DNA of 64,000 nucleotides from Candidatus Latescibacterota bacterium (GCA_965248755.1 OZ252149.1:4448001-4512000); one strand, 5' to 3'. Positions 45,716 to 60,153 are shown, counted from the stretch's first letter. A program made the numbers and translations. The notes: a model not told the origin generated them from the letters alone.

Positions 45716-46003
45716 ATGGCCGTTACGGTAGACGACGTTGACAAGGTAGCCTCCCTGTCAAGGTTATCATTTTCAGATGATGAGAGACGAAGGTTAGTGG
45801 ATGACCTGAACAGAATCCTTGAGTATATGGATCAGTTGAACGAGCTGAACACTGAGGATGTCGAGCCTACAGCTTACGTTCTTTCGATGAGCAACGTGTT
45901 TCGGGAGGATGTAGAGAAGCCTTCTATGCCGAAGGAGAAGTTGCTGGCGAACGCTCCGAGTCAGGAGAAGGGCTACTTCAAGGTGCCGCAGGTGATCGAG
46001 TAA
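45716..46003 (+). CDS. gatC: Asp/Glu-tRNA amidotransferase subunit C
   Basis: 'VA.L.RL', 'IL.Y..QL.E', 'FRED', 'NAP', 'YFKVP.VIE'. Confidence 0.93.
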   Translation: MAVTVDDVDKVASLSRLSFSDDERRRLVDDLNRILEYMDQLNELNTEDVEPTAYVLSMSNVFREDVEKPSMPKEKLLANAPSQEKGYFKVPQVIE

Positions 46004-46764
46004 TGGGACGGACGGCTGTGATAATTCCCGCACGATACGAGTCGAAAAGACTCCGAGGGAAGGCCCTTTTGAGAATTGCGGGTAAGCCGATGATAGAACA
46101 CGTTTACAAGAGGGCGTGCAAGGCTTGTGTGGCATCTGATGTCATCGTAGCTACGGATGATATAAGGATAAAGGAGGCAGTTGAAGGTTTCGGTGGGATA
46201 GCGGTTATGACTTCTTCTGAGCACAAAAGTGGTACGGACAGGATAGCTGAGGTTGTGGAGTCGTTGAAGGATGTAGAAATAGTTGTAAATGTTCAAGGGG
46301 ATGAGCCGCTAATTGATCCGAGTGTGATAGATCTTGTGGCCCATCCACTTATCAGGGATAGAAATATAGTAATGGGAACAGCAGCGTACAAGATCAGATC
46401 TTTAGAGGAACTATTAAGCACAAATGTAGTTAAGGTGGTCGTTGATAGAGAGGGCTTCGCCCTTTATTTCTCAAGAGCACCGATTCCTTTCATCAGAGAT
46501 ATTGAAGATAGACCTCACGTGATGGACGGATATTGCTTCCTGGGACACATAGGTATATATTCTTATAGGAGACACTTTCTTTTGGAGTTTGCTCGTATGG
46601 AGCCTGCACCTTTAGAAGATATCGAAAGGTTAGAACAGATGAGAGCGTTGGAGAATGGATATAAAATATATGTGTCCAGGACAGAGGTCAGGTCTGTGGG
46701 TGTGGATACAACGGAGGATTTAGAGAGGGTAAGGAGGGGGCTAAGTCGTTGTGACACAAGCTGA
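46003..46764 (+). CDS. kdsB: 3-deoxy-manno-octulosonate cytidylyltransferase
   Basis: 'IIPARY.S.RL.GK', 'SGTDR', 'NVQGDEP', 'YFSRAPIP', 'LEQMRALENG'. Confidence 0.96.
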   Translation: MGRTAVIIPARYESKRLRGKALLRIAGKPMIEHVYKRACKACVASDVIVATDDIRIKEAVEGFGGIAVMTSSEHKSGTDRIAEVVESLKDVEIVVNVQGDEPLIDPSVIDLVAHPLIRDRNIVMGTAAYKIRSLEELLSTNVVKVVVDREGFALYFSRAPIPFIRDIEDRPHVMDGYCFLGHIGIYSYRRHFLLEFARMEPAPLEDIERLEQMRALENGYKIYVSRTEVRSVGVDTTEDLERVRRGLSRCDTS

Positions 46765-46793
46765 GGAATCGATCTGATACGCTTAGAAATCCA

Positions 46794-47477
46794 GTGTCAG
46801 AAGGAGATGTAGTGAAACTCTATCTTATTAGGCACGGGCAAGCAAGATATTTTGGGGATGACGGGAAGATACAGAACAGTCAGGGCTTTCTGACCGAATT
46901 AGGTCATCGTCAAGCAGAGAGGGTGGGGGAGCGTTTCAGGGATTCTAACGTAGATTATCTCTACAGCAGCCCCTTGAAGAGAGTTCAGGAGACTGTGAGC
47001 TATCTGTCTCGAGCTCTGGGAAAGTCCCCGGAGTTTCTTGAATGGTTGAGGGAAATCAGCGTGGGCGATTTTGATGGATGGGCGGAGCCTATGGTTCGAA
47101 AGCATCTTGAGGAGGTAGCACTAAGGCCGCTTGCAGAGTGGTGGGACGGATACCCGAGGGGGGAGACCTTTAGGGAGTTCCACAAGAGGGTGACAAGAGG
47201 GTTAGACGATCTTCTGAAAAGCCACAGCGTGGAAAAAGATGGAGATTCTTATAGAATGTTGGGAGAGCAGGATCAGCGTCTGTGTCTGGTCTGTCATGCG
47301 GGGACGATTTCAGTTATTGTTAGCTATCTTCTGGAGTTGCAGCCTGTGCCCTGGGAATGGCATAGATTCTCCTCAGAGAACACCGGGGTATCCTGTATTC
47401 AATTCGGGAGAGTTGCAGACGCACTTAAGCCCTCTTTGATCTTTTTTAATTCCATTTCTCATCTGAACGGCATTTAG
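46794..47477 (+). CDS. Histidine phosphatase family protein
   Basis: 'LIRHGQ', 'SSPL.R..ET', 'CHAG'. Confidence 0.9.
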   Translation: MSEGDVVKLYLIRHGQARYFGDDGKIQNSQGFLTELGHRQAERVGERFRDSNVDYLYSSPLKRVQETVSYLSRALGKSPEFLEWLREISVGDFDGWAEPMVRKHLEEVALRPLAEWWDGYPRGETFREFHKRVTRGLDDLLKSHSVEKDGDSYRMLGEQDQRLCLVCHAGTISVIVSYLLELQPVPWEWHRFSSENTGVSCIQFGRVADALKPSLIFFNSISHLNGI

Positions 47478-47511
47478 GTCGTTTAAAGCGTGATGTACAG
47501 GAGGAAGGAAA

Positions 47512-49302
47512 TTGAACCCTAAATATGAGGGCCCAAGATTAATCGTAGTAGCAGGCGGGGTTATTAGTGGTGTGGGCAAGGGAATCGCTACGGCTTCGAT
47601 CGGGAAGATATTGCAGCAGTACGGCTACAGCGCAACTGCAATCAAAATTGACCCATACATAAATTACGATGCAGGGACGCTGAGGCCTACAGAGCACGGT
47701 GAGGTGTGGGTGACAGATGACGGCGGAGAGATAGACCAGGATCTGGGGAATTACGAGAGACTATTGGGGATTGACATCCCGAAGCGGAATAATCTGACGA
47801 CAGGACAGATATACCGGACGGTGATAAATAGGGAAAGGGGAGGGGAGTATCTGGGACAGACGGTTCGACCTATTCCCCATATTACAGATGAGATTAAGAG
47901 GAGAGTCTTAGAATCGGCTGTGGGATTTGATATAGCTCTGGTGGAAGTGGGTGGGACAGTAGGGGACGACGAAAACGAACCTTTTTTATTTGCGATGAAG
48001 GGTCTGGAAAGAGAAATAGGGGAGAAGAATGTCATCTATATCCTCGTTACCTACCTTCCAGTGCCGTCTCATATTGGGGAGATGAAGACGAAGCCGACTC
48101 AACAGGCAATTAAGCTTCTAAGTGAGCATGGCATCTTTCCCAATTTTGTCCTGTGTCGGGCAAATGAGCCTTTGGATGAGGTAAGGAAGAAAAAGATAGA
48201 GATTTCCTCGAATATAGCGGCTGATTCTGTGATTTCAGCTCCAGATATCCAGACCCTGTACGATATTCCACTAAATTTGGAGAAGGACGGCATTGGTAGG
48301 AAAATCCTGGAAAAGTTCGGCCTGGAGCCTAGAAAGTCGCCGGATTGGACGAACTGGCAAAGTCTGGTAAGGAGAATAAGAAATCCTTCTAAGACTCTGC
48401 GTGTGGCGATGGTAGGAAAGTACGTGGATATAGGGGACTATAGTCTAATGGATTCTTACATATCTATAAACCAGTCTTTAGAGCATGCGGGAGCGGCGTT
48501 CGACGTCGGGATCGATATCGATTGGATAGACTCTAAAGGGATAGAAGAAGACGATAAGGGGACTGAGAGTCTGAAGGAATTCGACGGAATTATAGTTCCA
48601 GGGGGGTTCGGAGGAAGAGGTGTGGAGGGTAAGATAGAGGCTATCAAGTTTGTGCGGGAGAACAACACACCGTTCTTGGGATTGTGTTATGGGCTTCAAC
48701 TTGCTGTGGTGGAGTTCGCAAGGAACGTCTGCGGGATGAACGGTGCCCATACCACAGAAATAGATCCCTCGACAGAGTACGCCGTTATAGATACTCAGCC
48801 GGGTCAAAGGGAAGTTATAGAAAAGAGTGAATATGGAGGGACCATGAGGCTTGGGGCGTACGCGGCTGTGTTGAAGAAGGGGAGTCTGGTCTATGAACTC
48901 TATAAGAAGTCCAGCCGTCTGGAGGAGGACTCAGAGAAAATTAAAACCATCAAAAAAGATAAGGATCAGGTGTTCAGACTGGGCTTGCTTCACAAGTGGG
49001 AGGATGCAGTTTTAGAAAGACACAGACACCGGTACGAGGTCTCTCCACTTTTTATTGAGCTTTTTGAGGATTATGGACTGGTGTTTTCAGGATATCACAA
49101 AGGGCTGGATGGCGTCAAGTTGATGGAGTTCGTAGAACTTCCAAAACACAGATTTTTCGTGGCAACTCAGGCACATCCAGAGTTTAAGTCGAGGCTGGAA
49201 AAGCCCGCCCCACTCTTTTTGGGATTCGTGGAGGGAATGCTAAAGTGCCAAGCCGAATATGAGGTAAAAGATGAGTTACATTCTACACTAAAGACAAGGT
49301 AA
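47512..49302 (+). CDS. pyrG: CTP synthase (divergent type)
   Basis: 'GGVISGVGKG', 'KIDPY', 'KTKPTQ', 'PGGFG', 'CYGLQ', 'RHRHRYE', 'HPEF'. Confidence 0.95.
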   Translation: MNPKYEGPRLIVVAGGVISGVGKGIATASIGKILQQYGYSATAIKIDPYINYDAGTLRPTEHGEVWVTDDGGEIDQDLGNYERLLGIDIPKRNNLTTGQIYRTVINRERGGEYLGQTVRPIPHITDEIKRRVLESAVGFDIALVEVGGTVGDDENEPFLFAMKGLEREIGEKNVIYILVTYLPVPSHIGEMKTKPTQQAIKLLSEHGIFPNFVLCRANEPLDEVRKKKIEISSNIAADSVISAPDIQTLYDIPLNLEKDGIGRKILEKFGLEPRKSPDWTNWQSLVRRIRNPSKTLRVAMVGKYVDIGDYSLMDSYISINQSLEHAGAAFDVGIDIDWIDSKGIEEDDKGTESLKEFDGIIVPGGFGGRGVEGKIEAIKFVRENNTPFLGLCYGLQLAVVEFARNVCGMNGAHTTEIDPSTEYAVIDTQPGQREVIEKSEYGGTMRLGAYAAVLKKGSLVYELYKKSSRLEEDSEKIKTIKKDKDQVFRLGLLHKWEDAVLERHRHRYEVSPLFIELFEDYGLVFSGYHKGLDGVKLMEFVELPKHRFFVATQAHPEFKSRLEKPAPLFLGFVEGMLKCQAEYEVKDELHSTLKTR

Positions 49303-49310
49303 GTTTATAG

Positions 49311-50129
49311 ATGAAAACCTTCGATGTAGGCAAAATCCGAATCAGTAGTGATAGTCTGATCCTTATAGCTGGACCCTGTGTAATTGAATCCCGGGAGCTG
49401 GTGATGAGGACAGCAGAGGCGCTAGGTAATATATGTCAACGTGTGGGGTTTCCAGTCATCTTCAAGTCGTCTTATGCTAAGATGAACAGGACAAGCATAG
49501 ATTCGTTTTCAGGACTGGGGATAGATAAGGGCTTGAAAATCCTGGAGAGTGTAAAGAGCGAATTAGGTATGCCTTTGACCACGGATTTTCATTCTGCAGG
49601 AGAGGCAGATGTAGCAGCACAAGTAGTGGATATGCTCCAGATCCCTGCGTTTTTAGTAAGACAGACGGATATCTTGCTTGCAGCAGGAAAGACAAGAAAG
49701 CCGGTGAATGTGAAAAAGGGTCAGTTCTTAGCCCCTGAAGATATGGCTTATGTAGTGGAAAAAATAGAGTCTACAGGAAACAGACAGGTTATGCTAACTG
49801 AGAGAGGAACTGCTTTCGGGTATCATGATCTGGTGGTGGACATGAGGTCTTTAGGCGTAATGAAAGCCACAGGATATCCTGTAGCTTTCGATGCAACTCA
49901 TGCAGTCTCCCTAAACCCGAGTAAGAACGAGAACAGGAAGTGTATAGAAGCTCTCTCCAGGGCGGCTGTGGCAGTAGGTGTAGATGCAATATTTATTGAG
50001 ACACATCCCGATCCACCTCGGGCTCTGTCAGATGGAGCAAGGATGCTACCTTTAGATAGATTAGCGGAGTTATTGGAGAGACTGAAGAGAATAAAGGAGG
50101 CTGTAAGAGACAAAACGAAAAAACATTAA
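49311..50129 (+). CDS. kdsA: KDO 8-phosphate synthase
   Basis: 'AGPCVIES', 'NRTS', 'QIPAFL.RQTD', 'KKGQF', 'DATH', 'ETHP...LSDG'. Confidence 0.95.
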   Translation: MKTFDVGKIRISSDSLILIAGPCVIESRELVMRTAEALGNICQRVGFPVIFKSSYAKMNRTSIDSFSGLGIDKGLKILESVKSELGMPLTTDFHSAGEADVAAQVVDMLQIPAFLVRQTDILLAAGKTRKPVNVKKGQFLAPEDMAYVVEKIESTGNRQVMLTERGTAFGYHDLVVDMRSLGVMKATGYPVAFDATHAVSLNPSKNENRKCIEALSRAAVAVGVDAIFIETHPDPPRALSDGARMLPLDRLAELLERLKRIKEAVRDKTKKH

Positions 50130-50331
50130 ACCTCCTACAGTTTTGCGTGTCCAAGACAGTAGAGCAGGGAATGGAACACTGACAATCCAAACTTTAGGAG
50201 GGGAAAAACCGTGAAATTGCGGATGCGGGGAGAAGAGATCACTTTGATTGCGTTTGTCGGAGTGTTTATGCTGTATGTCTTCTCAAACTTCGCCCAACTG
50301 TTCTGAGCATTTGTTACCTCTTGAGAGTATT

Positions 50332-50883
50332 ATGTCCGAACAGGGCGATGAAATATCACTTGTGAAGCAGTTTAAAGAGGGAGATGAGAGAGCATTTAAC
50401 GAAATTGTCAGAACTTACCAAGAGAGGCTCTATTATCTTGCTTTGAAGCTTCTGGGGGACAGAGAAGATGCACAGGATATCTCGCAAGAGGCATTTGTAA
50501 AGGCCTATTACGGTTTAAAGAAGTTTAGGGAGGATTCATCTTTATATACGTGGCTCTACAGGATTGTGCTGAATCTGTGTATGAATCGCCGACGGAGGGA
50601 CAAATTAGTAGAATTTGTTTCATTGGACGCTTTAGGTGAGATTACAGCGTCTAAAAGTGTTAATCCAGATAAGAAAGCGGAACATTCCGAACTTAATGCT
50701 GCTATTAAAGAGGCAGTAGATAGCCTTCCAGAGAAACAGAGAGCCATATTTATGTTAAGACAGTACGAGGAACTCTCTCATGGCGAGATTGCGGAAATAG
50801 TAGGCAGAAGCGTAGGTGCAGTAAAATCTAACTATTTTCAGGCAGTTAAAAAGCTTCAACAATCGCTGGCTAAGTTTAGATGA
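50332..50883 (+). CDS. ECF RNA polymerase sigma factor
   Basis: 'DAQDISQEAF', 'TWLYRI..N', 'LPEKQR', 'EIAEI.G.S.G.VKS'. Confidence 0.93.
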   Translation: MSEQGDEISLVKQFKEGDERAFNEIVRTYQERLYYLALKLLGDREDAQDISQEAFVKAYYGLKKFREDSSLYTWLYRIVLNLCMNRRRRDKLVEFVSLDALGEITASKSVNPDKKAEHSELNAAIKEAVDSLPEKQRAIFMLRQYEELSHGEIAEIVGRSVGAVKSNYFQAVKKLQQSLAKFR

Positions 50884-50914
50884 TGTATAGTTTTAACTTC
50901 CAGGCGAAATAGAA

Positions 50915-51618
50915 ATGAATTGCAATAATTTAAATGACCGTCTTATAGATTTTATCGAGGGGCAGTTGGAGAAGGAGGAGGAATTGGATGTTAAGAGACA
51001 CATAGATTCGTGTGCGGATTGTCTGCAAGAGTTGGAAAGTTTGAGATCTCTTCTGGAAGATATAGGTTCTTTCGGAAAAAGTTATAATGAAGAGGAGAAC
51101 ATTCACTGGGCTAATTATCTTCCTCAGGTAAGGGAAAGGATAAATAGAAAAAAGAGAAGAAGCTGTGGATAAGGGCAGCTGTTCCAGCTATAGGGATTTT
51201 GAGTATAGTTATTTTGCTATTTTTTCTAAACGGCGGCGGCAAACCCGATTCCGGTATGGGAGAAGAATGGACACCCGTGACTGGTGCTGAGGAATGGTAC
51301 ATTGGAGAGCTTGTAGACTTTGTAGTAGACTCATCGGATGTAGAAAAGATCATTATCAGTAGGCTGATCAGTCCTGGAATGATTGAAGATATAGCTGCTT
51401 TAGAGGAGTCCGAAGGATTTGGGTATGATAATACTGATGTGGATGTCAGTAGCGAGCAGTATGGCTACGTAGTCTATGAATTTGAGGAACTGGACAGTGC
51501 TGCTTTGGACTATATAGTTGAAAGGTCGGATTTAGAGAGCCTTCTTGAAGATCTTGATAAAGAGAGTCAGGAGGACTTGCTCAAGAGAGTGGCGGCAATC
51601 TCCTTGTCGATGGGGTAG
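50915..51618 (+). CDS. Zinc-finger (zf-HC2) anti-sigma factor encoded across a -1 frameshift at 51148-51154
   Basis: HxxxCxxC ('HIDSCADC') in 50915-51172. The -1 frame supplies TM 'LWIRAAVPAIGILSIVILLFFL' and an acidic domain ending at 51618. Confidence 0.75.
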
Positions 51619-51790
51619 TGGACTGTCAAGTATATTCTCTTGAATGACAATAACAACCGACGGTCACAGAAGCAGATTGGCAGAAACTCAAAGTTGAGGA
51701 CATAAGGAACGCGGACAGGGAAGCCATTCCCGATGAGTGCAGGTGGTGTAAGGATTTATGGATTAGTGGTCTCTTAAGGAGGCATGAAAA

Positions 51791-52414
51791 ATGAAAAGTG
51801 TTTATGTTGTATTTATATTGGTCTTGGGAGGACTTATCGCTGTATTAGATAGTAGAGCTATGTCACAACCTAGGCCATTTGACTTCCCGGCAAGAGGGGA
51901 GAAAATGAGGGAGAGGATAAGGACTATTCGTACCTGGAAGATGGTTGAACTGATGGATCTGACTGAGGAGCAGTCGCAGAGGTTTTTCCCTATTATGAAT
52001 CGGCGCGAAGATGGGGAAAGAGAACGGAATGAGAAGAGACATGAGATTATGCGGGAACTGCGAGAGCTTGTTGAGAATAAGGATACGTCGGATGATGAGT
52101 TGAAAAAGAAGATTGAGGAAGTAAGGAAAAATAACGTTGAACACCAGGAGAACAGCGAAAAGTTTCATAATGCTGTAGAGAAGGTGTTATCCGTGCGGCA
52201 ACAGGCAAAGTTGATGTTCTTCGAGCCGCGCTTTGAAAGAGAATTAAGAGACATAGTGAAAGACTTTAGACATAGAAGAATAGGGGAGCTTTGGCAAGAA
52301 GGACAACCGAAGGAACAGATGCAGAAGTTGGAGGAGTGGCAAGAGGAAATAAGAAGGTATCAGCAGGAAATTAGAGAATTGCAGAAGAAGTTGCAGGAAG
52401 AAATAAAGAAGTAG
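51791..52414 (+). CDS. Spy/CpxP-like periplasmic helical protein
   Basis: Signal peptide, 'LTEEQ' and 'LSVRQQ' LTxxQ-like motifs, located after ECF/anti-sigma. Confidence 0.7.
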   Translation: MKSVYVVFILVLGGLIAVLDSRAMSQPRPFDFPARGEKMRERIRTIRTWKMVELMDLTEEQSQRFFPIMNRREDGERERNEKRHEIMRELRELVENKDTSDDELKKKIEEVRKNNVEHQENSEKFHNAVEKVLSVRQQAKLMFFEPRFERELRDIVKDFRHRRIGELWQEGQPKEQMQKLEEWQEEIRRYQQEIRELQKKLQEEIKK

Positions 52415-52502
52415 GGGATGGAACAAACGGGGGAGAGTAGCAAAGAGATGGAAAGGCCGTAGACGATTTGCCTTTTGTAGTAAGAGTATCAAGATTGCCC
52501 GT

Positions 52503-52620
52503 GGGTCTGTCCAGAGGGTCTGTCAGATTTTTTGTGTAAATGGGATTTTCTTCTGTTCCCTTCTCCAGTTATTTTATTCTCAATCTCCCCTCGAAATGGA
52601 TTGAAAACTGTTGGATGGCC
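52503..52620 (-). mobile_element. IS256-family remnant: transposase C-terminus plus terminal inverted repeat
   Basis: Minus strand encodes AIQQFSIHFEGRLRIK* (stop at 52569-52571). The end GGGTCTGTCAGATTTTTTGTGTAAA resembles IS256 IRs. Confidence 0.7.
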
Positions 52621-52647
52621 TCTCCCCGATTGCTTCTATCGGGGAGA
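52621..52647. repeat. Palindromic REP-like unit
   Basis: TCTCCCCGAT-TGCTTCT-ATCGGGGAGA, same family as 16556, 20734 and 53882. Confidence 0.7.
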
Positions 52648-52767
52648 GATCCTACAGTAGAGAGGCCGGTGTCTGAAACCTAACGACCCGTGTGTTGGTT
52701 CAGCTTCCGGAAATCTACCTGCCGCACGAGAATTCCAGACACCGCACATTGTTTGGGTCTATTTTCT

Positions 52768-52795
52768 AGTTCCTATAATTAAAGTTATGTAAGCT
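52768..52795 (+). other. Variant dif-like XerC/D site
   Basis: AGTTCCTATAA-TTAAAG-TTATGTAAGCT. The XerC arm is identical to the one at 53698. Confidence 0.75.
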
Positions 52796-52827
52796 TGGGA
52801 GCGATGTCTACTATCAGTACCACTGCT

Positions 52828-53397
52828 TTAGGTAAGTGTTCTTAAAGTTTTCTGAACTTTAGCAGGATTCTTAATGTTTCCTAAAATACAATCAGCTTGA
52901 CCCGTGCCCGCCTTTGTTATAGTTATATCTCCACAACCAAACATTCTCTGGGAAGCACTCATTTTTAGTCTTATGTCTTGAATCCGATCTAAAGAAGTCT
53001 CGTAATAGATCGTATAACGCCATTTGATGAAAGAGGAGAGCATTACGAGAATAGCTAAAATTATGAAGAACTTGCCTCCGCCCGGGGAATCCGCGACAAA
53101 CATCACAATAGCAAGAGCCATAAAAAACCACCCTAAAAATTGAGACACAAAGAGCGCGCATGCTGCAGCCGGGCGTGCTTCGAATACTATCTTTTCATCA
53201 TCGCTTAATATGCTTTTGGGGATCAGCTTAGGTATGCTGTAAGATGGAATACTTATCTCTTTCTGTTTCTCCTCCTGGGCGGACTCCTCTTTCACTGCAT
53301 CTTGAGCAGTCAGTTTTTGAGCGGGTAGCTGAACCCCACAGGCACTGCAGAACTTTGCTGTGTCAGCGTTCTCATGTCCACAGTCAGAACAATACAT
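52828..53397 (-). CDS. Zinc-ribbon + 2TM + bacterial PH (bPH_2) domain protein, apparently with an internal deletion
   Basis: 'MYCSDCG.EN...AKFCSACG', two TMs, 'LDRIQDI....QRMFGCGDI.I..AG'. AGGAG SD. Confidence 0.75.
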   Translation of the reverse strand: MYCSDCGHENADTAKFCSACGVQLPAQKLTAQDAVKEESAQEEKQKEISIPSYSIPKLIPKSILSDDEKIVFEARPAAACALFVSQFLGWFFMALAIVMFVADSPGGGKFFIILAILVMLSSFIKWRYTIYYETSLDRIQDIRLKMSASQRMFGCGDITITKAGTGQADCILGNIKNPAKVQKTLRTLT

Positions 53398-53437
53398 ATT
53401 TATTTCTCCTTAACAAACGAGATATTTGTAAGCGATG

Positions 53438-53692
53438 TTACTGAATCAGCTGGATCTCACTAAGCTCAAGTCGAAGATTCTCCTTTGAATACGCAACCAA
53501 GTTATCATACGGCTCATCGCCGATGAACTGGTTTTCTTCCCATTGGTACCTTGCCTCTGCAATCTGTCCAGCAGCAATGTTTGCTTTGCCGGCGGTCAAG
53601 CGCGTGCGAAACAGAACATCGCCGAAGGCGTTTTTCACAATGAGGAGCGCTTTCCACGCTTTGATTCTCTGAGAGGTGTTATTCTTTACCAT
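53438..53692 (-). CDS. Hypothetical protein, probably a 5'-truncated fragment abutting dif
   Basis: 84 aa ORF whose ATG lies 5 bp from the dif XerC arm. Confidence 0.45.
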   Translation of the reverse strand: MVKNNTSQRIKAWKALLIVKNAFGDVLFRTRLTAGKANIAAGQIAEARYQWEENQFIGDEPYDNLVAYSKENLRLELSEIQLIQ

Positions 53693-53697
53693 ATTTT

Positions 53698-53725
53698 AGT
53701 TCCTATAATGTATATTATGTCAACT
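53698..53725 (+). other. dif: Chromosomal dif site (XerC/XerD recombination site)
   Basis: AGTTCCTATAA-TGTATA-TTATGTCAACT, compared with E. coli GGTGCGCATAA-TGTATA-TTATGTTAAAT and B. subtilis ACTTCCTAGAA-TATATA-TTATGTAAACT. Located at the gene-orientation/skew switch. Confidence 0.9.
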
Positions 53726-53853
53726 TACACTAATATTCAGTTTATTTCCGATACTTTTTATAATATGACTAGCCCGGATAATTCACTAAAACACGCCGTG
53801 TATTAATTAAGAGACTATATTATGTTATAGTTATGCCGTTTAACCATCTTCGG

Positions 53854-53902
53854 TGTCATTGCGAGCCGAACGTGGACCAATCCCCCGATAGACTTAATCG
53901 GG
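53854..53902. repeat. REP-like composite element
   Basis: TGTCATTGCGAG...CAATC followed by CCCGATAGACTTAATCGGG. Confidence 0.65.
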
Positions 53903-54310
53903 CTAGTTCCTCTTTCTTCCAGATATTTTGAACCATAATCCCTTACTCCTCCTGTCTTCCTCCAATCTGTTCTGCAATTCTTCTACTTTATATTCTAATT
54001 TCTCTTTTGCTGACTTATATTCCCACAAAAGCTCCTCTGTGGCTTTCAACTTGCCTATCTGCCTTAAGATTCCTTCATAATGCTCTCTATCCACTATTAT
54101 ATTTTTCTCCAGAAGATTGCTAATATCTCCTATTATTTCTATATTATTTCTAATCTTTGAACTAGAAAGATTCCTAATACTTTCTATGTCTATTATCCAT
54201 CTTCCATTGACCTTATTAGCATCTAACATCCTATTTGATATATAGTTATAGATTGTCTTTGTAGACATTTGGAGTGCTACACTTGCCTCCTTAATAGTAT
54301 AACCATCCAT
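53903..54310 (-). CDS. Excisionase/MerR-like helix-turn-helix protein with C-terminal coiled coil
   Basis: 'YTIKEA...L.MS.KTIYNYI...L.A.K..GRW.I'. AT-rich. Confidence 0.75.
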   Translation of the reverse strand: MDGYTIKEASVALQMSTKTIYNYISNRMLDANKVNGRWIIDIESIRNLSSSKIRNNIEIIGDISNLLEKNIIVDREHYEGILRQIGKLKATEELLWEYKSAKEKLEYKVEELQNRLEEDRRSKGLWFKISGRKRN

Positions 54311-54451
54311 TAGAAGTCCTTCTACAATAGTTCTAATGTACTAAATGATCTTCTTTATCGTAGACTTGATAGGGATCTTGCAAAATTAGATTAACAACCC
54401 CCAAAAAGGCTCACATAGGTACGTAAACATCTGAACTCAGAGACACACTTA

Positions 54452-54609
54452 CTATACCACTATATTCACAAGTTTCGATCGGGCCTGTTGAACCACTATG
54501 ATCCTACGTACTTCACCCTTGCCTATATGACGCTGGACATTAGCATCTACAAGAGCCAGTTCCTTCAATTCTTCCTCAGAAATGTCGGGAATAACCAGAA
54601 ACCTGCCGC
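54452..54609 (-). pseudogene. Duplicated 3' fragment of leuS
   Basis: Encodes [51 protein letters not shown], near-identical to the LeuS C-terminus. Confidence 0.9.
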
Positions 54610-54896
54610 AGCTCCTCTGTAGCTTTCAACTTGCAAATCTGCCTTAAGATTCCTTCATAATGCTCTCTATCTACTATTACATTTTTATCCAAAAGATTGC
54701 TAATATCTCCTATTATTTCTATATTCCTTCTAATTACTGAACTAGATATCCTCCTAATACTTTCTATATCTATTACCTATACCTATTTTACATTGACCTT
54801 CTTATCATCTAATATCCTATTTGATATATAGTTATATATTGTCTTTGTGGACATTTGGAGTGCTACACTTACCTCCTTAATAGTATAACCGTCCAC
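54610..54896 (-). pseudogene. Inactivated partial copy of the HTH gene
   Basis: GTG start, TAG stops from a substitution and a 6-bp duplication (TAGGTA) near 54780, truncated at 54610. Confidence 0.85.
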
Positions 54897-55037
54897 TGGA
54901 AGTTCTTCTAAAATAGTTCTATGGTACTAAATGATCAACTTTATCGTAGACTTGATAGGGATCTTGAAAAATTAGATTAACAACCCAAAAAAACGCTCAC
55001 ATAGGTACGTAAACATCTGAACTCAGAGACACACTTA

Positions 55038-57536
55038 CTATACCACTATATTCACAAGTTTCGATCGGGCCCGTTGAACCACTATGATCCTACGTACTTT
55101 ACTCTTTCCTATGTGACGCTGGACATTAGCATCTCCAAGAGCCAGTTCCTTCAATTCTTCCTCAGAAATGTCGGCTGTAACCAGAAAGCTGCCGCGCACT
55201 TTTCCATTCACCTGCACAGCGGTGGTAACTTTATCTGCCTTTGCAAGTTCAGGATCGTAGTTGGGCCACTCTAGATCCATGATGCTGCCTTCGTGACCGG
55301 TTATTGACCACAACTCTTCAGCTATATGTGGAGCAAATGGAAAAAGGAGGAGAAGGAAGGCATCCCGGCTCTCTCTATCCAGTTTCCCATTACCTGCGTC
55401 CGGAGAATAGACGTAATTTACAAACTCCATAAATCTACTGATGATAGTGTTCAGCTTGAAGGCTTCAAGGCCTTTTGTTACCTGTTCTATTAGAGCATGC
55501 TGCCTCTCGAGCATGGAATCAGAAGGGTCCTCATGGTTATCCAGATTTGAAAGTACTAGGTGCCATACTCTACTCAAAAAGCGAAAGGTGCCCTCTATTC
55601 CCCTATCGTTCCATTCAGAATCCTGGTCAGGTGGACCAATGAAGAGATCGTATAATCTAAGGGAATCAGAGCCGTACTTTTCAACCAGTTCATCTGGGCC
55701 GACCACATTTCTCCTGGATTTGCTCATCTTGGCTCCCAGCCTATAGACCATTCCGTTATTAAAAAGATGGGTAAATGGCTCATCGAAGCCTATGTGTCCT
55801 AAATCGTACAGGACTTTCGTAAAAAACCTGGCGTAGAGCAGATGAAGTATGGCGTGTTCCACCCCGCCGATATACATATCTACCGGAAGCCACCTGTCTG
55901 CAATCTCTCTATCAAAAGGAGCTTTATCCTCATTCGGACTTATGTACCTCAAAAAATACCAGCAACTCCCAGCCCACTGAGGCATGGTGTCTGTATCTCG
56001 TTTTGCCTCTCCGCCGCACTCTGGACAAGAAGTATTAACAAATTCCGGTATGGCAGCCAGGGGTGACTTTCCTGTACCTGACGGCTCGTATTTCTCTACG
56101 TCAGGAAGGAGCACAGGAAGGTCTTCCTCCGGCAGCGGTACCTCACCGCACCTTTCACAATATACTATTGGAATCGGCTCTCCCCAATAGCGTTGTCTTG
56201 AGAAGACCCAGTCTCTCATTCTGTAGTTGACGGCCTCTTGACCGAGGCCCTGCTCTCTGAGCCACGCTGTTATACTATCCCTGCCTTTTTGCCCTTCCAG
56301 TCCATCAAACATCCCGGAGTTCACCATAATCCCCTCCCCCACGAAGGCCTCAGTAAGTTTTCCCTGATCGTCTTTAGTGCTCTGTTTGCTGTGTATCACT
56401 TCCACAATTGGAAGGTTGAACTTGGCTGCGAACTCAAAATCTCTTTGATCGTGGGCAGGAACAGCCATAATGGCTCCCGTCCCGTAAGACATAAGCACGT
56501 AATCGGAGATCCAAATCGGTATCTTCTGTCCATTAACGGGATTTAGAGCGTACGATCCCGTAAAGACACCCGTCTTCTCGCCTGAGGGCGACGTGCGGTC
56601 AATCTCAGAGGTCTTGCACACTTTCTCCACGTACTCGGATATCTCCTCCTTGCGATCATCCGTTGATAGGACTGACACTAACGGTTGCTCTGGCGCCAGT
56701 ACCATATACGTAGCTCCAAACAGCGTGTCGGGCCTCGTAGTAAACACGGGAATCTGATGCTCCGAACCATCCGGAGAAAGACCTTTGAATATCACACGGG
56801 CTCCCTGGCTGCGACCGATCCAGTTGGCCTGCATAACCTTCACCTTTTCGGGCCACTTTAGCCTTTCCATATCGTAAAGCAGGCGATCTGCGTACGCAGT
56901 TATTTTGAGCATCCATTGTTCCATATCCCTCTTTTCCACTTCACTTCCACACCTCTCACAGCGCCCCCCTACCGCCTCCTCATTGGCCAATCCGGTCTTA
57001 CAGCTTGGACACCAATTGATAGGAGCCGCAGCTTTATACGCCAATCCCTTCTTGTACATCTGAAGGAATATCCACTGGGTCCATTTATAATACTCAGGCG
57101 AACTGGTGTCTATCTCCAGATCCCAGTCGTACATCGTACCCATCTCTTCAAGCTGACGCTTCATATTGCCGATATTTTTGGCTATGCTCTTCTTTGGATG
57201 AATTCCTCTTGATATAGCGTCATTCTCCGCTGGAAGACCGAAAGAATCCCATCCTACCGGGTGAAGGACGTTATAACCACAAAGAGCCTTATACCTGCTC
57301 CACACATCGGATATTACATATGGTCTCCAATGGCCCACGTGCAGAGCGCTCCCCGAGGGATAAGGAAACATATCCAGGCAATAGTAGTTCTTATCCTCGG
57401 AATCCAGATTGGTCTTATATCTCCCTGTCTCCTTCCATATCCTGTGCCACTTTGGTTCTATCTCTCTAAAATTGTAAGGGATTCTCTCCCCAATTGTTCC
57501 CGTTGCCCCATTCATCTTTCTATAATCATCCTCCAT
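55038..57536 (-). CDS. leuS: Leucine--tRNA ligase
   Basis: 'MFPYPSG..LHVGH', 'FTTRPDT', '[15 protein letters not shown]', 'SRQRYWG', 'KMSKS', 'QVNGK'. Confidence 0.97.
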
Positions 57537-57609
57537 ACACGCTACTTAGTTCTAAGTCTGCAATACTTTAGCCGATACGATGCGATCCCAGATTCTGCTG
57601 AAAACAATT

Positions 57610-57644
57610 AAAAAAGACTACCGGAAATTGCGATCCGATAGCCT
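57610..57644 (-). terminator. Rho-independent terminator after pnp
   Basis: Minus strand AGGCTATCGGA-loop-TCCGGTAGTCT followed by a T-run. Confidence 0.7.
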
Positions 57645-57666
57645 CTCAATGCTGCAGTTAGAACGC

Positions 57667-59829
57667 TTAGTTTGACGGCTTTGTAGGCTGCCTTTGATAC
57701 CAGCGGGGTTTATCCGATCTCCCATCACCGCTCTCTGTCTCTGTGTCTTTCCTGTCCATAGTTGCTTTTCTACTCAGCTTGATCTTCCCCTGACCATCTA
57801 TTCCTATAACCTTGACTGTGACGTTGTCTCCCACGTTGAGGACGTCCTCTACCTTATCCACTCTGTGGTATTCCAGCTCAGATATGTGCACCAACCCATC
57901 CTTGCCCGGAAGTATCTCCACAAAAGCGCCGAAATCCATAATCCTTTTGACTTTGCCATCATATATCTTGCCGACCTCTGCCTCCTGGACCAAATTCTCC
58001 ACCATCTGCACTGCCTTTTCTCCCATCGCTTTATCCACAGATGCTATAACTACTCTTCCATCGTCGTCAACGCTTATCTTAGCCCCTGTAACTTCCTCCA
58101 TCTCTCGTATAGTACTCCCCTTTGGTCCTATTATGATCCCTATCTGAGATTGCTTTATGTCTACTGTCGTGATCATCGGAGCGTAAGGCGACAGATCGGG
58201 ACGTGCTTGTGAGAGGCTTGCATCCATAATGTCGAGTACCTTATGAAGGTCCTGCCCTGCCCTTTCCAATGCCTCCTGCATAATATCAAAGCTTATGCCT
58301 TCTATCTTGATATCCATCTGTATGGCTGTGATCCCGTCCCTGGTTCCTGCCACTTTCAAATCCATGTCTCCCCAGTGATCTTCAGCTCCCATAATGTCAG
58401 AAAGAATGCAGGCTCTGTCCCCCTCCTTTATCGAACCGATCCCGACACCTGCCACAGCTCCCTTCACAGGCACTCCCGCATCCATAAGCGACAAGCTTCC
58501 CGCGCATACAGTAGCCATAGACGACGAACTGTTCGACTCTAAAATCTCTGAAACTACCCTTATCGTATAAATGAAATCTTCCTGAGGCGGTATCATAGGC
58601 TCGATCGCCTTCTCAGCCAAGGCCCCGTGCCCTATGTCCCTCCTGCTTGGTCCCAATATCCGCTTAACTTCTCCAGTGCAAAATGGCGGGAAGTTGTAAT
58701 CGAGCATATACCGTTTAAACGATTTTCCCTCTAAATCATCCACCATGCGTTCATCCAGCTTCGTGCCCAGCGTCGTCACAGCCAGACTCTGAGTCTCACC
58801 CCTTGTAAAGAGGGCAGATCCGTGAACCCTTGGTAGGACGCCTACTTCGCAGGTTATGGGTCTTATCTCATCAGAGGCCCTCCCATCAATTCTCTTGCCA
58901 TCAGATATGACCATCTGTCTCATATCGGTCCTTTCAATTTCCTCAAGGACCTCAGCTATCTCTTTTTCCTTTTCGGGGAATCTCTCGGACAACTTCTCCA
59001 TAACATCCGTCTCTAGCTGTCCCAGCGCCGCACTCCTGTCTTCTTTATCAACGCCTCTATTGGCTTCCTTGATCCTGATTGCAGCAAGTTCCTCAACGGC
59101 GTCTTTAAGACCTGGGATCTCATCCTTTTGCCGAATCTCTCTCTTTGGGACGCTGGGCGCCGCTGCTATGAGCCTTTCTTGGAGCTCTATAATCTCTCTT
59201 ATAGCCTCGTGCCCGAACTTCAGCGCCTCAAGCATGTCCTTATCAGAAATTTCCAGCGCAGAACCTTCCACACTCATAATGGTATCCTTTTTACCCCCGA
59301 CTACCAGATCTATATCGCTGTTTTCCAACTGAGACATCGTCGGATTGATTATGAGTTGGCCGTCCACTCTTCCGACCCTGACTGCTCCGCTGGGACCCAT
59401 AAACGGTATATCAGATATACAAAGAGCCGCAGAAGCCCCTATCATTCCCAAAACATCCGCGTCGTTTTCCTTATCGTAGGACAGAACCATTACTATAATT
59501 TGAGTTTCACATTTGAACTCCCCGGGAAAAAGCGGGCGTATTTGATGGTCTATCATTCTGGCGCTTAGTACCTCCTGATCCAGGGGGCGCGCTTCTCTCC
59601 TTCCTATATTGCCCGGTATCGTACCCGTCGAATACTTCTTCTCTCTGTACTCCACCTGAAGAGGGAAAAAGTCCTTTTCCAGCTCTTCTTCTTTAGAAGC
59701 CACGGCGGTAGCCAATATTACTGTGTCTCCGTATCCTACTATCACAGCTCCATCGGCCTGTTTAGCCACTTTCCCGGTCTCTATATACAGATTTAGCCCG
59801 CCCAGCGTCATCTCCACCTTTTCTATCAT
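57667..59829 (-). CDS. pnp: Polyribonucleotide nucleotidyltransferase
   Basis: 'DFFPL.V.Y.E', 'HGSALFTRGETQ', 'YNFPPF', 'GDMD.KVAGT', KH and S1 domains. Confidence 0.97.
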   Translation of the reverse strand: MIEKVEMTLGGLNLYIETGKVAKQADGAVIVGYGDTVILATAVASKEEELEKDFFPLQVEYREKKYSTGTIPGNIGRREARPLDQEVLSARMIDHQIRPLFPGEFKCETQIIVMVLSYDKENDADVLGMIGASAALCISDIPFMGPSGAVRVGRVDGQLIINPTMSQLENSDIDLVVGGKKDTIMSVEGSALEISDKDMLEALKFGHEAIREIIELQERLIAAAPSVPKREIRQKDEIPGLKDAVEELAAIRIKEANRGVDKEDRSAALGQLETDVMEKLSERFPEKEKEIAEVLEEIERTDMRQMVISDGKRIDGRASDEIRPITCEVGVLPRVHGSALFTRGETQSLAVTTLGTKLDERMVDDLEGKSFKRYMLDYNFPPFCTGEVKRILGPSRRDIGHGALAEKAIEPMIPPQEDFIYTIRVVSEILESNSSSSMATVCAGSLSLMDAGVPVKGAVAGVGIGSIKEGDRACILSDIMGAEDHWGDMDLKVAGTRDGITAIQMDIKIEGISFDIMQEALERAGQDLHKVLDIMDASLSQARPDLSPYAPMITTVDIKQSQIGIIIGPKGSTIREMEEVTGAKISVDDDGRVVIASVDKAMGEKAVQMVENLVQEAEVGKIYDGKVKRIMDFGAFVEILPGKDGLVHISELEYHRVDKVEDVLNVGDNVTVKVIGIDGQGKIKLSRKATMDRKDTETESGDGRSDKPRWYQRQPTKPSN

Positions 59830-59883
59830 TATTCTTACCTCCCTTAAAACCTTACTTTTGAAGTCGATTCTTTCTATCTTCGC

Positions 59884-60153
59884 TTATCGCCGCAGCCCTA
59901 ATTCCTTAATTAGATCCCTGTATCTGCCCACGTCCTTCTTATCTAGATACCTCAGTAATCTCCTTCTTTTGCCCACCATCTTTAATAGACCTAAACGCGA
60001 GTGATGGTCTTTCTTGTGGGTCTGCAGGTGCTCCGTCATATACGCTATTCTATCTGTCAGTAAGGAAATCTGCACCTCAGGCGATCCTGTATCGCCTTTG
60101 CCTCTTCCGAATTGTTTTACCAGCTGCTCTTTTCTCTCACCGGTTAATGCCAA
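59884..60153 (-). CDS. rpsO: 30S ribosomal protein S15
   Basis: 'DTGSPEVQI', '[11 protein letters not shown]', 'LGLRR'. Confidence 0.97.

Follow-up and report, generated by a model that had tools for sequence, protein, structure and literature searches.

Among the elements that depend on the Xer recombinases of their host, the gonococcal genetic island (GGI) measures about 57 kb, and the sites flanking the pdif modules of Acinetobacter are in inverted orientation. Here we describe a 930-bp unit enclosed by two dif-type sites at the replication terminus of a Candidatus Latescibacterota bacterium (genome G000). The unit lies in a stretch of 64,000 nucleotides (GCA_965248755.1, OZ252149.1:4448001-4512000), which is called the window below and from whose first letter all window positions are counted. 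We propose, with a probability of roughly 60%, that it originated as an insertion at dif mediated by the host proteins XerC and XerD, through an XerC-side exchange as in the VGJphi-type integrative mobile elements that exploit Xer (IMEXs), and that it is now a decayed, non-autonomous remnant. No report of Xer-exploiting elements in this phylum was found in the literature, among the matches listed.

In the VGJphi-class IMEXs of Vibrio cholerae the attP site is double-stranded, XerC performs the first exchange and host replication completes the integration, the process being reversible (PMC4246890). Because core heterology lies on the XerD side, XerD catalysis does not take place, and base pairing between attP and dif next to the XerC cleavage point is required (PMC4246890). 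The unit in G000 resembles these elements in its position at the chromosomal dif, in the absence of an integrase and in the proposed use of host XerC and XerD. Its left-hand site (site 1 below) is likewise of the single, double-stranded, dif-like attP type with heterology on the XerD side of the core, and two direct Xer sites, one of them presumably a working dif, flank the unit with a core position that fits an XerC-first reaction (PMC4246890). In contrast to VGJphi, a filamentous phage of 7.5 kb that carries genes for replication and for the virion (PMC4246890), the unit comprises only 0.9 kb with two apparently damaged genes that have neither function, and its attP would share only one base with dif at the XerC cleavage point. 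Its host, moreover, is no proteobacterium but a member of an uncultured phylum, and no excised form was seen in the contigs searched.

The GGI and the Legionella element LME-1 show stable integration and are bounded on one side by an intact dif and on the other by a modified copy, an arrangement to which that of the unit is similar, and for LME-1 it was shown that substitutions in the modified site reduce excision (PMC9765430). Both of these elements are large and carry functional gene sets, and the recombinase of LME-1 is XerL alone (PMC9765430), whereas the unit in G000 is tiny and appears decayed. A third comparison concerns the pdif or dif modules of Acinetobacter, which are likewise small, carry one or two genes between XerC/XerD sites without an integrase, and are thought to be moved by host Xer recombination (PMC12907356). 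Such modules are multi-copy and reside on plasmids or at additional dif-like sites, and the main dif is thought not to be involved (PMC12907356). The unit in G000, unlike these modules, is present in a single copy at the main dif, has direct sites and lacks plasmid relatives; it is not an Acinetobacter-type dif module.

Paired dif-type sites and the single-site allele of a relative

The locus was compared with that of G001, the only other genome of the same genus and family in a collection of 168 phylum genomes that includes G000. Its parts are the following.

52696-52767, plus strand: chromosomal left flank of dif (target flank), aligning to the left flank of the G001 dif
52768-52795, plus strand: site 1, a variant dif-type site (attL-like), with XerC arm AGTTCCTATAA, core TTAAAG and XerD arm TTATGTAAGCT
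52796-53697, no strand assigned: inserted cargo segment, 902 bp between the 28-mers, absent from G001
53698-53725, plus strand: site 2, a canonical dif (attR-like), with XerC arm AGTTCCTATAA, core TGTATA and XerD arm TTATGTCAACT
53726-53771, plus strand: chromosomal right flank of dif (target flank), aligning to the right flank of the G001 dif

As an initial annotation of the window had stated, and as can be read directly in the sequence, sites 1 and 2 have the same orientation, equal XerC arms (identical at 11 of 11 positions), different cores (common at positions 1 and 4 only) and slightly different XerD arms (2 of 11 positions differ). They form direct 28-bp repeats, 930 bp apart from start to start. 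The TGTATA core of site 2 is the classical dif core, and four T's to the left of the XerC arm are common to both sites. When up to three mismatches are allowed, the dif pattern has four matches in the window versus 0.17 expected, a number reached in none of 100 shuffled sequences. Exact matches are limited to sites 1 and 2, both in the window and in the entire G000 genome (4,540,735 bp in a single contig); the genome scan for more dif-like 28-mers that had been proposed initially therefore returned no others among exact matches. At up to two mismatches 21 matches occur genome-wide, versus 28 for a reversed-pattern control, and no further degenerate dif-like sites were detected within about 4 kb on either side in G000 or G001. 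A chance origin of the site pair is excluded.

The cumulative GC skew of the genome has its maximum at position 4,500,544, corresponding to window position 52,544, and its minimum at 1,891,527. The maximum is situated 224 bp to the left of site 1 and about 1.15 kb from site 2, and the sign of the skew changes between 52 and 54 kb of the window. The locus is therefore the replication terminus, in agreement with the location given in the initial annotation, and site 2 is presumed to be the working dimer-resolution site. Tyrosine-recombinase matches number 15 in the genome, none of them near the window. The two best of them are a XerD with 349.2 bits on TIGR02225 (cut-off 329.6) and a XerC-like protein with 331.5 bits on TIGR02224, below the cut-off of 335.15 for that model and above the NF001399 subfamily cut-off; the genes for both are located elsewhere in the genome, away from the cassette.

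G001 carries one exact dif, AGTTCCTATAATGTATATTATGTAAACT, and thus provides the empty single-dif allele that was to be sought in relatives, with the cassette absent. The 16 kb around it (locus L020) were aligned with the window, and the flanks at 46001-52508 and 54610-60000 are about 95-96% identical. Closer to the sites, window positions 52696-52796 match L020 7927-8027 with 85% identity, and positions 53691-53771 match L020 7992-8072 with 91% identity (BLAST). Both pieces align onto the single G001 dif, so that the outer flanks in G000 are those of a single ancestral dif. Relative to G001, the break points lie within the 28-mer, and the 902 bp of cargo have no counterpart in L020. In comparison with site 2, the G001 dif has an identical core and XerC arm and agrees at 10 of 11 positions of the XerD arm. 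In comparison with site 1, the XerC arm is again identical and the XerD arm again agrees at 10 of 11 positions, and the core differs (TTAAAG in site 1 versus TGTATA). The G001 XerD arm, TTATGTAAACT, is accordingly one base off both XerD arms of G000.

The position of the cores is informative with respect to the route of entry. The chromosomal core TGTATA, as found in G001, lies wholly in site 2, beside the chromosomal right flank, and the foreign core lies in site 1; at core positions 5-6, site 2 reads TA, like the G001 dif, and site 1 reads AG, a difference of the kind that the VGJphi class requires. This placement is the one predicted for an exchange by XerC only and fits XerC exchange at the border between XerC arm and core, from which we infer an XerC-side pathway. 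According to this model, the incoming element would have been a circular DNA with an attP mimicking the dif of the genus, consisting of a perfect XerC arm, the core TTAAAG and the XerD arm TTATGTAAGCT. XerC would have swapped one strand pair at the arm/core border, after which replication or repair would have resolved the junction. The resulting attL, site 1, would combine the chromosomal XerC arm with the core and XerD arm of the element, and the resulting attR, site 2, would combine the XerC arm of the element with the chromosomal core and XerD arm, leaving a working dif. Subsequent deletions would then have cut the element down to two broken genes.

The arms attributed to the element match the dif of the genus at 21 of 22 positions, and XerC arms vary from one family of the phylum to another, which means that the donor was adapted to hosts of this kind. 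The site pair is now likely to be stable, because the cores match on the XerC side at the first base only and at no base of the XerD-side end. With its insertion at dif, a dif accompanied by a modified direct site, no recombinase of its own and a precise single-dif empty site, the unit has several of the features by which IMEXs are recognized. Since neither a free form nor mobility genes were found, it is classified as an IMEX remnant and not as an autonomous IMEX.

Contigs from public sequencing runs cover the same region. In two runs, independent contigs of 1327 nt each span 52528-53854 with zero differences, so that the arrangement is not an artefact of one assembly, even if these two runs may be the source sample itself. 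A 959-nt contig of run X3 skips 52763-53694 and was considered as an excision product of the G000 allele. This was rejected, since the contig carries G001-type bases at 52728, 52742, 52744 and 52747 as well as the other two indels of G001, and therefore derives from a co-occurring G001-like strain. In addition, runs X1, X2 and X3 hold contigs that match the dif alone (window 53692-53734), with unrelated sequence on both sides, and a third relative in run X1 has the right flank of dif in common but not the left one. The samples therefore also contain molecules or strains in which this dif has other neighbours.

Cargo genes and the search for a parent element

The cargo segment is present in a single copy in the G000 genome and has a GC content of 43.6%, versus 46.2% for the window. 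The initial annotation had described only two open reading frames (ORFs) between the sites, one of 84 residues and one coding for a zinc-ribbon, transmembrane and PH-domain protein, and this was confirmed.

52828-53397, minus strand: ORF189, 189 residues, with a zinc ribbon at the N terminus, two hydrophobic helices and a partial bacterial PH domain
53438-53692, minus strand: ORF84, 84 residues, putatively a 5'-truncated remnant with a conserved C-terminal beta-rich domain

The spacers between the ORFs and the sites are 32 bp on the side of site 1 and 5 bp on the side of site 2. The statement of the initial annotation that the cassette lacks an integrase also held, as the cargo proteins match no recombinase family. 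More generally, neither protein matched recombinase, replication or phage families in Pfam, the TIGRFAM/NF models and PHROGs, including the structural and replication families of phages in the latter, and no replication, phage or transfer genes are contained in the 902 bp. No Rfam families were found in 51500-55500 at E<=0.1.

In Pfam, ORF189 is recognized by Zn_Ribbon_1 (31.2 bits) and by bPH_2 (31.8 bits), the latter at profile positions 26-78 of 78 only. Among 5.8 billion proteins it has a single full-length relative, P0003 (encoded on a contig of 2,720 bp), with 43% identity by BLASTP and 49% by pairwise alignment. The PH domain of P0003 is 18 residues longer and covers bPH_2 profile positions 1-78; judged from this comparison, ORF189 is likely to be degraded and to lack the first third of the domain. 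No full-length relative was found in the other 167 phylum genomes, and a metagenome scan with ORF189 returned one locus with the zinc ribbon only (residues 1-68, 33% identity).

ORF84 had appeared to be an orphan in a first homologue search, a view overturned by a full HMMER search, which retrieved 91 relatives at E<=0.001. It corresponds to a C-terminal stretch of ~83 residues in proteins that are about 140-240 residues long, among which P0005 (encoded on a contig of 4,126 bp) is 70% identical. The relatives bear signal peptides, membrane anchors or SH3/DUF3157 domains, and the family appears to consist of secreted or membrane-anchored proteins. In a multiple alignment (A1), 14 of 15 relatives extend at least 20 residues upstream of the first residue of ORF84, whose start falls in the middle of a conserved strand of the family and which has no signal or anchor region; one relative, P0024 (85 residues), begins at the same point as ORF84. 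The ATG of ORF84 lies 5 bp from site 2 and is preceded by AGGA inside the XerC arm (minus strand), and promoters upstream of it were not found above the level of shuffled sequences (6 versus 4.3 expected). The predicted fold is beta-rich (mean pLDDT, predicted local distance difference test score, of 80) and has no match in the PDB at E<=0.001; a protein atlas contains only unnamed clusters for ORF84. The family was not detected in the other 167 phylum genomes (1 of 168, this being G000 itself), and a profile scan of genome contigs with the ORF84 alignment gave three distant loci only, with 33-34% identity or a match of a 17-residue piece. Both cargo genes thus look foreign to the sampled genomes of the phylum, and both look damaged or structurally incomplete, which favours a remnant over a working mini-cassette.

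Larger collections were also searched. A scan of IMG/VR with the ORF84 alignment gave 43 candidate stretches, none of which was confirmed, and tblastn with both ORFs against 50,697 phage records gave no match. Against 72,556 plasmid records ORF84 likewise had no tblastn match, and ORF189 had five partial matches to its PH domain on haloarchaeal plasmids (27-40% identity), none of them full-length. In IMG/VR, the exact XerC arm AGTTCCTATAA followed by a TTATGT XerD arm, with varied cores in between, was found at 14 loci (L048-L061) on 13 contigs; these loci have no DNA in common with G000 and no proteins in common with the cassette.

These viral contigs form a separate observation. Five of the 13 were annotated, and all five are tailed-phage contigs. 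The dif-type site adjoins small-terminase genes at L049, L055, L059 and L060, and at L061 the terminase gene found is that of the large subunit, about 1 kb from the site. One contig of 40 kb has a dif-type site at both ends, and the arms at L049 are equal to those of the G001 dif at 22 of 22 positions. The contigs may represent tailed phages that integrate via the Xer proteins of their host.

Alternative explanations and implications

Several points weigh against a decayed XerC-side insertion. The first three core bases beside the XerC arm are TGT versus TTA, with one of three in common (T), and pairing this thin points to an XerC that is permissive or to a site 1 core that has drifted since integration. 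The same product could arise in one daughter cell from a two-step reaction of XerC and XerD with subsequent replication. The tight packing of the ORFs against both sites resembles a designed cassette more than the outcome of random decay. A parent element was not found in the collections searched, and the search for circular junctions that the initial annotation had recommended revealed no circular or excised form of the G000 allele in the contigs of three runs, a weak negative given that it covers contigs only. Finally, with one close relative (n=1) and no outgroup from the family, gain in G000 is inseparable from loss in G001.

The last point leaves room for a reversed polarity, in which the element entered before G000 and G001 separated and was later excised by Xer in G001, so that the site pair is, or was, competent for excision. 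We regard this as a tentative, somewhat unlikely possibility. The clean single dif of G001 is the product expected from excision, the heavy decay of the cargo suggests a long residence, and elements of the VGJphi class leave by the same XerC route (PMC4246890). There is no outgroup, the collection containing no genome of the family besides G000 and G001; the G001 XerD arm TTATGTAAACT, at one base from both G000 arms, indicates no direction, and the heterologous cores speak against efficient excision. With regard to the cores, the initial annotation had maintained that the mismatch would disfavour excision. This stands for the XerD/FtsK route, which would be blocked, but not for excision by XerC alone, which in the VGJphi class takes place regardless (PMC4246890); here, with just the first core base beside the XerC arm in common, poor excision is still plausible.

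The unit could also be a complete, still mobile mini-cassette of 930 bp, comparable to integron cassettes or pdif modules, i.e. a replication-less circle with one attP on which host XerCD act in trans. It would spread by transformation or by hitch-hiking on other replicons, with ORF84 and ORF189 as working cargo. Almost all of the space between the sites is taken up by cargo, the spacers being 32 and 5 bp, and the size is within the range of the Acinetobacter pdif modules with one or two genes (PMC12907356). Likewise, arms that match the dif of the genus at 21 of 22 positions would make a well-adapted attP. Against this reading, there is only one copy in the G000 genome, the other phylum genomes and the plasmid, phage and IMG/VR collections do not contain it, and the contigs examined show no circular junction. 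The genes themselves point both ways: the ATG of ORF84 with its AGGA inside the XerC arm, and the 85-residue P0024 that begins where ORF84 does, are compatible with an intact gene, but 14 of 15 ORF84 relatives have the upstream domain and the signal or anchor that ORF84 lacks, and one third of the ORF189 PH domain is gone. We consider a working mini-cassette unlikely. The initial annotation had offered a minimal cassette or the relic of a larger IMEX; of these the relic fits better and the minimal cassette less so, given the 5' truncation of ORF84 and the partial PH domain of ORF189.

An origin without Xer, in which duplication of the dif region or illegitimate recombination made the second site and the foreign DNA came by another route, is very improbable. 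In its favour, the G000 terminus is unstable, since a 580-bp duplication, a 134-bp insertion and a segment replacement, none of them present in G001, occur no farther than 2.5 kb from dif, and both sites have the four T's beside the XerC arm, on its left, in common. Against it, the identity is limited to the Xer arms plus these 4 bp with the 6-bp core replaced, unlike in a duplication, the G001 break points lie inside the 28-mer, and a genome of another family (G046, see below) has an arm-identical, core-different pair around unrelated cargo.

Interpreted as the remnant of an XerC-side insertion, the locus would extend Xer-exploiting insertion to an uncultured phylum, by a type of mechanism already known from elements of the cholera-phage type. 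G000 and G001 would represent a natural before-and-after pair, which allows the crossover to be located at the border of XerC arm and core with no need for an experiment. The locus would also present an element in decay, with two fossil genes between a working dif and a dead-looking copy of it. For genome annotation it follows as a caution that such pairs should be taken neither for assembly errors nor for a second dimer-resolution site.

Terminus organization in the phylum and around the G000 dif

A loose dif pattern has matches in 99 of the 168 phylum genomes. Among the matches listed, two or three same-strand sites at most 20 kb apart on one contig occur in seven genomes, and opposite-strand pairs in two. 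Annotation of 11 intervals between paired sites led us to reject the idea of IMEXs throughout the phylum, as accessory cargo is present in only one of the 11, that of G046; the site pairs around the other intervals may have another meaning.

The closest counterpart to the G000 unit is that of G046, which belongs to another family; here the direct sites AGTTCGCATAA-TGAATC-TTATGTAAACT and AGTTCGCATAA-TAGATA-TTATGTAAATT flank 9.2 kb (locus L033, 2997-12268). This island encodes a heparinase II/III-like protein, an M14 peptidase and two DegT aminotransferases, has no integrase, and sits at the locus where dif and an HTH_17 gene (see below) are neighbours. G047, from the same genus (L041), has one dif and is without about 11.2 kb at this place.

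A different arrangement was found in genus g43. In G118, G124 and G126 (L029, L030 and L031), which account for three of the four annotated g43 pairs, leuS alone lies between direct dif-like sites whose XerC arms are identical (ATGTCTTATAA) and whose cores differ, and in G125 (L032) inverted sites enclose leuS, mutL and a recombinase gene. The leuS gene is single-copy in all five g43 genomes searched; site pairs with unlike cores can therefore be maintained around a gene that is essential. A gene for an Xer-like tyrosine recombinase is found next to leuS in some members of the genus, whose loci considered here also include L043 of G122. In G107 a recombinase gene flanked by inverted dif-like sites lies between mutL and leuS. 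The five intervals in G101, G112 and G114 have unequal XerC arms and contain housekeeping or mixed genes.

Beside the XerD arm of the G000 dif, a gene at window 53903-54310 (minus strand), its 3' end being directed toward dif, encodes a protein of 135 residues with an HTH_17 domain (excisionase-type helix-turn-helix) and a coiled coil. Homologues with 34-92% identity lie within 730 bp of dif in all nine genomes with a match at E<=1e-18, which represent four families.

Genomes with HTH_17-dif linkage: G000, G001, G002, G013, G018, G023, G045, G046 and G047 (loci L020, L033, L041, L042, L044, L045 and L046)

In a further 37 genomes with weaker HTH_17 matches (families f7 and f13) no linkage to dif was seen, their dif not having been identified. 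The HTH_17 protein may be a factor associated with dif or with the terminus. Together, the G046 island, leuS between dif-like sites and the dif-linked HTH_17 gene suggest an undescribed terminus biology in this phylum, and these observations are perhaps worth more than the cassette itself. A far-reaching and doubtful extension would be that the terminus of the phylum acts as an integron-like landing pad, where integrase-free cassettes or islands of 0.9-9 kb are swapped at dif by an XerC-first reaction of host XerCD, with the HTH_17 protein as an excisionase- or XafT-like controller and the G000 cassette possibly still exchangeable.

The surroundings of the G000 dif differ from those in G001 in other respects as well. 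A 134-bp insertion at window 53769-53902, 43 bp to the right of dif, has 17-nt terminal inverted repeats and is absent at the G001 locus. About 45 copies of it with 84-87% identity are present in the genome, and it has a very high depth in all three runs; it is a repeat family resembling miniature inverted-repeat transposable elements. Farther to the right, a tandem duplication of 580 bp (54030-54609 and 54610-55190), also absent from G001, joins the leuS 3' end to the 5' part of the HTH_17 gene. The two copies are 90.4% identical to each other, the second HTH copy contains two in-frame TAG stops, and both copies are 89-92% identical to G001, below the 95% of the left flank.

To the left of dif, 188 bp in G000 (52508-52696) replace 572 bp of G001 (L020 7355-7927). 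The 572 bp have no match anywhere in G000, and the 188-bp stretch holds one copy of a 106-bp repeat with about 12 genome copies. Still farther to the left, a zf-HC2 anti-sigma gene downstream of a gene for an extracytoplasmic function (ECF) sigma factor forms one ORF of 234 residues in G001 (L020 5761-6465). In G000 the same gene is split into ORFs of 85 and 139 residues (50915-51172 and 51199-51618), and it is probably frameshifted.

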